Assembly (NCBI RefSeq): GCF_000026545.1
Contig: NC_011601.1
DNA: 64,000 nucleotides
Reading direction: 5' to 3' (one strand)
Source of the DNA: Escherichia coli O127:H6 str. E2348/69
GTDB taxonomy: Bacteria; Pseudomonadota; Gammaproteobacteria; Enterobacterales; Enterobacteriaceae
The position numbers were made by a program. The stretch's first letter is position 1; each line of letters opens with the position of its first letter. Shown piece after piece: positions 50,443-53,400 of this stretch.

Positions 50443-53400
50443 TGAATGACACCAGCTTCGAAAACTGCATTAAGTGCACCGTCTGCACCACCGCCTGCCC
50501 GGTGAGCCGGGTGAATCCGGGTTATCCGGGGCCAAAACAAGCCGGGCCGGATGGCGAGCGTCTGCGTTTAAAAGATGGCGCACTGTATGACGAGGCGCTG
50601 AAATATTGCATCAACTGCAAACGTTGTGAAGTCGCCTGCCCGTCCGATGTGAAGATTGGCGATATTATCCAGCGCGCGCGGGCGAAATATGACACCACAC
50701 GCCCGTCGCTGCGTAATTTTGTGTTGAGTCATACCGACCTGATGGGTAGCGTTTCCACGCCGTTCGCACCCATCGTCAACACCGCTACCTCGCTGAAACC
50801 GGTGCGGCAGTTGCTTGATGCGGCGTTAAAAATCGACCACCGTCGCACGCTACCGAAATACTCCTTCGGTACGTTCCGTCGCTGGTATCGCAGCGTGGCG
50901 GCTCAGCAAGCGCAGTATAAAGACCAGGTCGCTTTCTTTCACGGCTGCTTCGTTAACTACAACCATCCGCAGCTAGGCAAAGATTTAATTAAAGTGCTCA
51001 ACGCGATGGGTACCGGCGTACAACTGCTCAGCAAAGAAAAATGCTGCGGCGTACCGCTGATCGCCAACGGTTTTACCGATAAAGCACGCAAACAGGCAAT
51101 TACGAATGTAGAGTCGATCCGCGAAGCAGTGGGAGTAAAAGGCATTCCGGTGATTGCCACCTCCTCAACGTGTACATTTGCCCTGCGCGACGAATACCCG
51201 GAAGTGCTGAATGTCGACAACAAAGGCTTGCGCGATCATATCGAACTGGCGACCCGCTGGCTGTGGCGCAAGCTGGACGAAGGCAAAACGTTACCGCTGA
51301 AACCGCTGCCGCTGAAAGTGGTTTATCACACTCCGTGCCATATGGAAAAAATGGGCTGGACGCTCTACACCCTGGAGCTGTTGCGTAAAATCCCGGGGCT
51401 TGAGTTAACGGTGCTGGATTCCCAGTGCTGCGGTATTGCGGGAACTTACGGTTTCAAAAAAGAGAACTACCCCACTTCACAAGCCATCGGCGCACCACTG
51501 TTCCGCCAGATAGAAGAGAGCGGCGCAGATCTGGTGGTCACCGACTGCGAAACCTGCAAATGGCAGATTGAGATGTCCACAAGTCTTCGCTGCGAACATC
51601 CGATTACGCTGCTGGCACAGGCGCTGGCTTAAACTCCTTTCTGATGCCCGGTAAGCATGTTGTTACCGGGCATTTTTGCGTACACGATTCCGTGCCCAAT
51701 GTATGCGTTGCAACGCAGTGAAAATTCCTCTGAAAACGTCTCGCAAAGGCTGAAACTGGCAGATGTCAAAGGTCTGGGATAACCGTAATGTCGCGTCATC
51801 ATAAATATCAGGTGACGGACAACCATGACCGAATCAACAACCTCCTCCCCGCATGATGCGGTGTTTAAAACCTTTATGTTCACACCCGAAACCGCACGGG
51901 ATTTTCTGGAAATACATCTACCAGAGCCGCTGCGCAAGCTTTGCAACCTGCAAACCTTACGCCTGGAACCCACCAGTTTTATTGAAAAAAGTTTACGCGC
52001 TTACTACTCGGATGTTTTGTGGTCCGTGGAAACCAGCGAGGGTGACGGCTATATCTACTGCGTGATTGAACATCAAAGCTCTGCAGAAAAGAATATGGCT
52101 TTTCGGCTAATGCGCTATGCCACTGCCGCCATGCAGCGTCACCTGGATAAAGGCTATGACAGAGTTCCGCTGGTGGTGCCATTGCTGTTTTATCATGGCG
52201 AAGCCTCGCCCTACCCGTACTCACTCAACTGGCTGGATGAGTTTGACGATCCGCAACTTGCCCGGCAGTTGTACACCGAAGCTTTTCCGTTGGTGGATAT
52301 CACCATCGTACCTGACGATGAGATCATGCAACATCGACGTATAGCTCTGCTGGAACTGATTCAAAAGCATATTCGCGACCGCGATTTAATCGGTATGGTC
52401 GACAGGATCACCACGCTTTTGGTTAGAGGCTTCACTAATGACAGCCAGCTACAAACACTGTTTAATTATCTGCTGCAATGCGGCGATACCTCCCGTTTCA
52501 CCCGCTTTATTCAGGAGATTGCCGAACGTTCACCACTACAAAAGGAGATATTAATGACTATTGCTGAACGGCTACGGCAGGAAGGACATCAAATTGGCTG
52601 GCAGGAAGGTAAGATTGAAGGCTGGCAAGAAGGTAAATTAGAAGGTTTGCAGGAAGGCATGCATGAGCAAGCCATTAAAATTGCCTTGCGCATGCTGGAG
52701 CAGGGCTTTGAACGTGAGATTGTGCTGGCGGCAACCCAACTCACTGATGCTGATATTCCGAACTGTCATTAAAAGGAGAGATTGATGACTATTGCTGAAC
52801 GGCTACGGCAGGAAGGACATCAAATTGGCTGGCAGGAAGGTAAGATTGAAGGCTGGCAAGAAGGTAAATTAGAAGGTTTGCAGGAAAGCATGCATGAACA
52901 AGCCATTAAAATTGCTTTGCGCATGCTGGAGCAGGGCATTGATCGTGACCAGGTGCTCGCGGCCACTCAGCTAAGCGAAACCGATCTGGCAGCAAAAAAC
53001 CACTAATTAACACAGGCCCACAGCCGATCCCCATGGGCCTTTGATATCAATAACTACCTTTTACGCGTGGCCCATTTTTGCCTGATTTAAACATCGCCAG
53101 TCGTTGATCCAGGGCATCGCTGTAGAGCATCGTGTCAACGCCAACAGCGACAAAGTTCGCTCCCCACGCCAGGCATTGCTGCGCCATATCAGGAGCCACA
53201 GCCAGAAAACCAGCCGCTTTACCCGCAGCACGGATCCGCCGAATGCTGGTTTCAATAATTCGCTGCACTTCCGGGTGCCCGGCGTTATCCGGGTAGCCCA
53301 ACGACGCAGAAAGATCCGCAGGTCCAATAAACACGCCATCAATCCCTTCGACATCGAGGATTTCGTCCAGGTTATCCAGTGCCGTTTTACTTTCCACCTG

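Follow-up and report, generated by a model that had tools for sequence, protein, structure and literature searches.

The rpnE–ypaA locus of Escherichia coli E2348/69

The window analysed in this study is a stretch of 64,000 nucleotides (nt) from contig NC_011601.1 of Escherichia coli O127:H6 str. E2348/69 (assembly GCF_000026545.1). It contains the gene rpnE (also known as yfaD), which encodes a nuclease of the Rpn family, followed directly by a small gene, ypaA, that duplicates the 3' end of rpnE, and it is with these two genes, and with the small protein specified from within rpnE (RpnE-S), that this report is concerned. The pair is flanked by glpC on one side and by the convergent gene yfaU (rhmA) on the other, surroundings that consist of core metabolic genes (the glp and rhm operons) and include no defence island. 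When window region 51700–53100 was compared by BLAST with complete E. coli genomes (n=5426), the E2348/69 chromosome was recovered as a 100% match. The features of the locus, in window coordinates and with the basis of each in brackets, are as follows.

51825–52772, + strand: rpnE (yfaD), long form RpnE-L of 315 amino acids (aa), with an N-terminal PD-(D/E)XK nuclease and a C-terminal helical domain (open reading frame, ORF; NF007418)
51846–52451, + strand: Transposase_31 (YhgA-like) nuclease domain, residues 8–209 (PF04754)
52540–52754, + strand: direct repeat, copy 1, 231-bp spacing (repeat search)
52542–52547, + strand: internal Shine–Dalgarno (SD) sequence AAGGAG, spelled by Lys-Glu codons of RpnE-L (sequence)
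52554–52772, + strand: rpnE-S, nested in the frame of rpnE and encoding a small protein of 72 aa, the putative RpnS antitoxin module (sequence; K-12 literature)
52596–52657, + strand: dodecamer (four-residue) repeat array in rpnE/rpnE-S, five units (Tandem Repeats Finder, TRF)
52771–52985, + strand: direct repeat, copy 2, with 90% identity to its partner across 215 nt (repeat search)
52773–52778, + strand: SD sequence AAGGAG of ypaA (sequence)
52785–53006, + strand: ypaA (RpnE-Ss), free-standing 73-aa small-protein copy (ORF; PF27070; 7TH0 profile match)
52827–52886, + strand: dodecamer repeat array in ypaA, five units (TRF)
53014–53040, no strand assigned: GC-rich hairpin in the interval that separates ypaA from the convergent gene yfaU, the probable rpnE/ypaA terminator (fold energy)

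The in-frame ATG at 52554 follows the internal AAGGAG after a spacer of 6 nt, and its 72-aa product is exactly the C-terminus of RpnE. The rpnE stop codon (TAA, 52770–52772) lies inside an A-rich lead-in to the second unit, the SD sequence of ypaA starting one base after the TAA, and the ypaA ATG at 52785 is twelve bases past the rpnE stop, with the ypaA reading frame closing at 53006. ORF calling opens ypaA at a TTG codon (52782), but the same codon is TTA in K-12, and ATG 52785 is therefore taken as the conserved start. The pattern AAGGAG-N5-8-ATG occurs four times in the window against 1.7 expected by chance, and two of these four occurrences are the rpnE-S and ypaA starts. The hairpin downstream of ypaA has a fold energy of -12.1 kcal/mol (z = -3.0) on the + strand, and the terminator scan flagged the - strand.

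Only one direct-repeat family was found (52540–52754 and 52771–52985), and the ungapped identity of its two copies is 98% over 100 nt, 96.7% over 150 nt, 97.0% over 165 nt and 90.2% over 215 nt. The first 34 residues of RpnE-S and YpaA are identical and the two proteins are 82% identical overall, the divergence falling mostly within the last 20 residues. TRF reported a period of 24 and 2.5–2.6 copies for both repeat arrays. An original prediction, made from this DNA before the present analysis, had described the internal start behind its SD sequence, the 72-aa product that it would give, the recurrence of the whole unit 231 bp downstream as ypaA at about 97% identity, and divergence in the final 20 codons; each of these elements was recovered at its predicted position.

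The left edge of the duplication was also examined beyond AAAAGGAG, as the RpnE tail DADIPNCH might stem from the stretch ahead of the internal SD sequence; here the two copies share CCGAAC..TCA at a 5-nt offset and the local alignment stops short. The final codons of rpnE (52758–52770, CCGAACTGTCATT) are similar, with the same 5-nt offset, to the stretch preceding the internal SD sequence (52522–52539, CCGAACGTTCACCACTAC). Such sequence similarity hints that the segment originally duplicated may have begun some 20 nt upstream of the SD sequence, and that the tail of RpnE, DIPNCH*, may have been formed at the duplication junction.

The RpnE nuclease domain and the small-protein fold

RpnE matches the Pfam family PF04754 (Transposase_31) over residues 8–209 with an E-value of 6.5e-88, and scores well above the cut-offs of the NCBIfam equivalog NF007418 (712.6 bits, cut-off 583) and of TIGR01784 (177 bits, cut-off 52). 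At positions equivalent to those of RpnA, RpnE retains D11, D63, E82, Q84, R94 and D165; all six positions have been mutated in RpnA, and the mutations D11A, D63A, E82A and Q84K each abolished all phenotypes of that protein (Kingston et al., 2017). Precomputed matches to PF27070 (HTH_Rpn_C) are present in both the RpnE C-terminus and YpaA.

With YpaA as query, 246 relatives (E ≤ 0.001) were recovered from 1.84 billion representative proteins. Many of these are free-standing proteins of 60–90 aa that start with MTIAERLR and carry xxEG repeats, and in others, which are full-length Rpn proteins, the match begins at an internal methionine after Lys-Glu. The motif K-E-x-(L/I)-M-T is held even in the distant full-length Rpn proteins P0045, P0049, P0107 and P0150, which are 44–52% identical to YpaA in the matched stretch. 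Since the Lys-Glu codons spell the SD sequence and the motif is kept in distant homologues, the nested start signal is preserved by the protein sequence itself.

A profile built from 44 small homologues and compared with the PDB matched the RpnA-S chain 7TH0 (E 1.8e-13). In an AlphaFold2 model of YpaA (predicted local distance difference test score, pLDDT, 78), helices span residues 3–49 (the long helix), 54–61 and 65–69, and the best PDB match of this model found by Foldseek was again 7TH0, with a probability of 1.00 and a template modelling (TM) score of 0.70 on the target, but an E-value of only 0.023. YpaA is thus modelled as a compact three-helix module of the RpnS type, the long first helix bearing the repeats. 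The sequence of full-length RpnE, compared with PDB sequences, gave no match to RpnA-S, only a chance match to interferon (E 0.0098). Designed pentatricopeptide repeat (PPR) and ankyrin repeat (DARPin) proteins, which ranked at the top of the small-homologue profile search, were discarded because their rank came from adding up weak, repeated matches, none of them a significant stretch, and the matches to FliH (NCBIfam) and to Yae1_N and Interferon (Pfam) lie far below their cut-offs and were caused by the charged xxEG repeats.

Relation to published Rpn systems

The gene-within-a-gene arrangement at rpnE–ypaA, together with its reading as an antitoxin, is already known and has been in print since 2019 and 2023. 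Internal in-frame starts were found in rpnA to rpnE as peaks in retapamulin ribosome profiling (Ribo-RET), and the rpnE internal-start product was noted to be 98% identical to YpaA (Meydan et al., 2019, 10.1101/520783). Profiling tracks of 'rpnE-ypaA/rpnESs' in K-12, Onc112 peaks included, were subsequently shown by Zhong et al. (2023, PNAS, PMC10400941), who detected sequential peptide affinity (SPA)-tagged RpnE-S and YpaA, the latter renamed RpnE-Ss, by immunoblot in K-12, and who cite differential RNA sequencing (dRNA-seq) data for an internal transcription start. The same study solved the structure of RpnA-S and showed that RpnS blocks the toxicity or SOS induction caused by RpnL in the cases of RpnA, RpnB and RpnP2, and that RpnC is also neutralized. 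It further reported that the number of four-residue repeats varies from strain to strain; that one extra repeat in RpnC abolishes neutralization unless it is present in both partners; that RpnE-Ss derives from RpnE, the downstream gene being lost either through a deletion or when it is fused to the N-terminal domain of rpn; and that protection against phage is conferred by plasmid-borne RpnP2, the only Rpn for which a phage role has been demonstrated. The original prediction had pointed to just such a link between a small RpnS antitoxin, a full-length RpnL toxin and phage defence, in agreement with what Zhong et al. (2023) report on neutralization in RpnA, RpnB, RpnC and RpnP2 and on phage protection by RpnP2. 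No later publication on YpaA emerged from a literature search.

The closest relative of the E2348/69 system is that of K-12, which occupies the same locus and has the same internal start, free-standing downstream copy and four-residue repeats, with both small proteins known to be made. The two differ in allele: in K-12 RpnE has 299 aa and 1 repeat unit and YpaA 61 aa and 2 units, and in E2348/69 RpnE has 315 aa and YpaA 73 aa, each with 5 units. RpnA-L/RpnA-S, RpnB and RpnP2 resemble RpnE in their nuclease domain, catalytic residues, nested small protein and three-helix C-terminal module. Toxicity, neutralization and complex formation (and, for RpnP2, phage protection) are demonstrated for these three, and would extend to RpnE by analogy; unlike rpnE with its ypaA, however, these pairs have no downstream copy. 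In some E. coli, rpnC is likewise followed immediately by a small-protein copy of its parent, rpnC-Ss (Zhong et al., 2023, Fig. 2I), but this is a separate and independent duplication, and the repeat-number specificity experiment was carried out on RpnC, not on RpnE. ypaA has the attributes of a free-standing RpnSs gene, namely its own ribosome-binding site, a position directly downstream of its parent, and an identity to RpnE-S of 97% in nucleotides (165 nt) and 82% in protein.

In conventional type II toxin–antitoxin operons a protein antitoxin similarly blocks a protein toxin, and the antitoxins are often helical or contain a helix-turn-helix (HTH). In Rpn, by contrast, the antitoxin is encoded in frame within the gene of its toxin, and the two must therefore co-evolve, a constraint that the ypaA copy escapes. 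Zhong et al. (2023) also drew a comparison with the TAEL repeats of HsdS in EcoR124I and EcoR124II, in which the number of four-residue helix repeats sets specificity as it does in Rpn; in EcoR124 the repeat number sets the spacing of the DNA target, whereas in Rpn it sets protein–protein pairing.

Proposed function of RpnE and YpaA

We consider it very probable that rpnE–ypaA belongs to the published family of Rpn gene-within-a-gene toxin–antitoxin systems and that it carries an additional, free-standing copy of the antitoxin gene. The toxicity of RpnE-L, its neutralization by RpnE-S or YpaA, and any role against phage are inferred from the paralogues. Our current working hypothesis is that translation of the full ORF would yield RpnE-L, in which a PD-(D/E)XK DNA endonuclease domain is followed by the helical C-terminal domain, and that ribosomes would also initiate at the internal AAGGAG and ATG 52554 to give RpnE-S, which consists of just the C-terminal domain. 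If RpnE behaves as RpnA, RpnB, RpnC and RpnP2 do, RpnE-S would then pair with the corresponding long helix of RpnE-L, the one that bears the repeats, and hold the nuclease inactive, until a trigger, possibly phage infection, freed it. ypaA may have arisen by tandem duplication of the small-protein unit, including its ribosome-binding site, and is probably co-transcribed with rpnE-S in a transcript that would end at hairpin 53014–53040. Slippage of the 12-nt repeats would alter the length of the helix, and unequal crossover between the two units would delete one of them.

A number of observations weigh against this interpretation. Overexpression of RpnE from K-12, alone among the paralogues, had no effect on recombination, viability or SOS induction (Kingston et al., 2017), and the main text of Zhong et al. 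(2023) reports no test of RpnE-L alone or of YpaA as an antitoxin. Scans of the region upstream of the internal start at 52554 for a sigma-70 promoter, both consensus and relaxed, found no credible -35/-10 pair, so that the evidence for an internal transcription start is the dRNA-seq data cited by Zhong et al. (2023). The PADLOC 2023 models gave no convincing defence match for either protein, RpnE having one weak match to a 'putative invertase' (E 2e-4) and YpaA none. Finally, the repeat numbers of YpaA and RpnE differ in all sampled haplotypes other than that of E2348/69 (see below), which speaks against YpaA as a simple redundant antitoxin in general.

The Kingston et al. (2017) assay could also be explained if RpnE were a paralogue that is catalytically silent or has a housekeeping function, with RpnE-S and YpaA serving as small HTH regulators or in some other role concerned with neither toxin nor phage. 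HHpred links RpnS to HTH motifs and some Rpn proteins may serve housekeeping functions (Zhong et al., 2023), and the position of the locus among core metabolic genes, outside any defence island, would fit such a role. However, every residue whose mutation inactivated RpnA is conserved in RpnE, and the repeats of RpnE diversify rapidly, as do those of other, active Rpn systems. Moreover, since the construct used by Kingston et al. (2017) carried rpnE-S, co-expressed with the full-length protein, and the host carried ypaA, toxicity of RpnE may have been masked. We therefore regard a silent or housekeeping RpnE as a distinctly improbable alternative to a toxin–antitoxin system.

Variation of the locus among E. 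coli genomes

The rpnE–ypaA locus was found in 5420 of the 5426 complete E. coli genomes, with match lengths that differ by multiples of 12 nt. A query spanning the junction between the two copies (52700–52800, from the RpnE-type tail to the start of ypaA) was present in 3133 of the same 5426 genomes. For closer analysis we used 61 loci, comprising those of 18 complete genomes spread along the BLAST ranking and 43 contexts of five YpaA alleles; the sample, being chosen by BLAST rank and YpaA allele, is not random. Across it, the number of repeat units ranges from 1 to 9 in RpnE-S and from 1 to 7 in YpaA. In all sampled two-copy loci ypaA has kept an intact ORF, AAGGAG and ATG, the length changes being in-frame multiples of 12 nt, and the internal SD sequence of rpnE is conserved in almost all loci, with one AAGGTG variant.

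This conservation bears on the possibility that a partial duplication left ypaA behind as a remnant without function and that the internal ATG of rpnE is a plain methionine codon. ypaA is called a pseudogene by the Prokaryotic Genome Annotation Pipeline (PGAP) in E2348/69 (window 52773–53006; 'incomplete; partial in the middle of a contig; missing N-terminus'), in K-12 and in most of the sampled RefSeq assemblies, and in most sampled loci RefSeq labels rpnE 'ISNCY family transposase'. In strain ES4 (L007), by contrast, the newer annotation records ypaA as a coding sequence, 'Rpn/YhgA-type helix-turn-helix domain-containing protein' (WP_000150333.1). With a start signal and reading frame intact in every sampled two-copy locus, length steps that preserve the frame, free-standing homologues of 60–90 aa with the MTIAERLR start in common occurrence, and both proteins tagged and detected and both starts profiled in K-12 (PMC10400941; 10.1101/520783), a remnant is extremely improbable, and the RefSeq annotation of ypaA lags behind the published detection of its product.

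Twelve combinations of repeat number were distinguished among the sampled two-copy loci, as follows.

K-12 type: RpnE-S 1 unit, YpaA 2 units
L036 type: RpnE-S 2 units, YpaA 5 units
DFL.5 type: RpnE-S 4 units, YpaA 2 units
E2348/69 type: RpnE-S 5 units, YpaA 5 units
E371: RpnE-S 6 units, YpaA 1 unit
FDAARGOS_1303 type: RpnE-S 6 units, YpaA 2 units
ECO_2_R type: RpnE-S 6 units, YpaA 3 units
RM14723: RpnE-S 7 units, YpaA 3 units
2022H047: RpnE-S 7 units, YpaA 5 units
ES4: RpnE-S 9 units, YpaA 2 units
AZ191 type: RpnE-S 9 units, YpaA 5 units
EC08: RpnE-S 9 units, YpaA 7 units

Eleven of these combinations are mismatched and the E2348/69 type alone is matched. The matched haplotype is also rare: each of the four commonest YpaA alleles is listed in between 5,829 and 17,920 index blocks, compared with 99 for that of E2348/69. 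The rpnE-S allele of E2348/69 is that of 2022H047 minus a clean 24-nt block, with the downstream rpnE-type single-nucleotide polymorphisms (SNPs) kept. Gene conversion from ypaA, which might have produced the 5 versus 5 match, is ruled out as its origin by this 24-nt contraction and the retained rpnE-type SNPs.

Because the two proteins have 5 versus 5 units, YpaA is, under the length-matching rule of RpnC, a plausible second source of cognate antitoxin in E2348/69. On the same analogy, YpaA could be a redundant antitoxin in this strain and is probably not one in K-12 or in most other strains. The suggestion, made in the original prediction, that two copies might serve antitoxin dosage fits the matched E2348/69 haplotype only, the repeat numbers being mismatched in every other haplotype sampled. 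Its expectation that the tandem repeat is a substrate for recombination held good, given the 12-nt steps in the length of yfaD and the fusions of RpnE and YpaA described below, although this had already been stated by Zhong et al. (2023). Nor is the repeat an artefact of assembly, the identical 315 aa plus 73 aa arrangement being found at seven places in different assemblies and the junction itself in 3133 genomes.

The single-copy loci, 4 of the 61, are RpnE–YpaA fusions. Those of KE21 and Ec-U9-1 combine RpnE-type repeats with a YpaA-type tail, the crossover lying downstream of the repeats, and those of O157 ATCC 43889 and strain 219 have both the repeat number and the tail of the YpaA type, the crossover lying upstream of the repeats. 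The flanking GlpC and YfaU proteins are the same in single-copy KE21 and two-copy AZ191, which suggests that the KE21 form arose by a recent deletion.

It is interesting to speculate on why the two copies should so often be mismatched. One possible explanation is that YpaA is not a redundant antitoxin for the neighbouring RpnE but a diverged module with a specificity of its own, an orphan antitoxin that would pair with no partner except itself or other RpnE alleles, for example incoming or recombinant ones. Alternatively, ypaA may be a stored C-terminal cassette, such that unequal crossover would graft it onto the nuclease and reset the helix length and specificity of toxin and antitoxin in one step. 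On either explanation E2348/69, a rare haplotype matched through a loss of 24 nt from rpnE, would stand apart as the one case where YpaA is able to substitute for RpnE-S. The 11 mismatched combinations, which include the haplotypes of the four most abundant YpaA alleles, point in this direction, as does the ending of cross-neutralization by one extra repeat in RpnC (PMC10400941), and fusions with the crossover downstream and upstream of the repeats were both found. Against this, the copies in E2348/69 have 5 versus 5 units and are identical over 34 residues, so that for this strain it is simpler to assume redundancy; RpnC alone was used to test the repeat rule, the locus sample is not random, and the fusions are deletions, which provide no reversible switch. 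On balance we hold a diverged or stored YpaA to be rather unlikely, though the most credible of the alternatives to a supernumerary antitoxin of the Rpn family.

A genome with the E2348/69 haplotype (locus L024, 1279–1310; GCA_900450255.1), likewise of 315 aa plus 73 aa, carries the one AAGGTG variant of the internal SD sequence, a change from Glu to Val in RpnE-L, with the SD sequence of ypaA intact. This single case, an anecdote, can be reconciled with a YpaA that compensates for a weakened RpnE-S in a matched haplotype, and in that respect fits the view of E2348/69 as an exception among mismatched strains.

An antitoxin encoded within its toxin, with helix length as a code for specificity, is biology of interest that has already been published for rpnE–ypaA. 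What is added here is the contrast between matched and mismatched haplotypes, which, given the non-random sample and a rule based on RpnC, is a lead and not a result. K-12 (mismatched) and E2348/69 (matched) form a natural pair for deciding between a backup antitoxin and another role for the free-standing copy.

Three further cases depart from the usual arrangement. In L044 (GCA_012187305.1), rpnE has a stop codon eight codons past the internal ATG, leaving an RpnE of 251 aa and no RpnE-S beside an intact ypaA (73 aa), so that a nuclease domain without its C-terminal domain adjoins an orphan small protein. One of the 3133 genomes with the two-copy junction has it at two places, which suggests a three-unit array or a second locus. 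In L058 (1499–2798; GCA_013368055.1), a gene with a MoCF_biosynth domain stands downstream of ypaA in place of the yfaU/rhm genes, indicating a rearrangement or deletion that ended at or near the ypaA terminator region.

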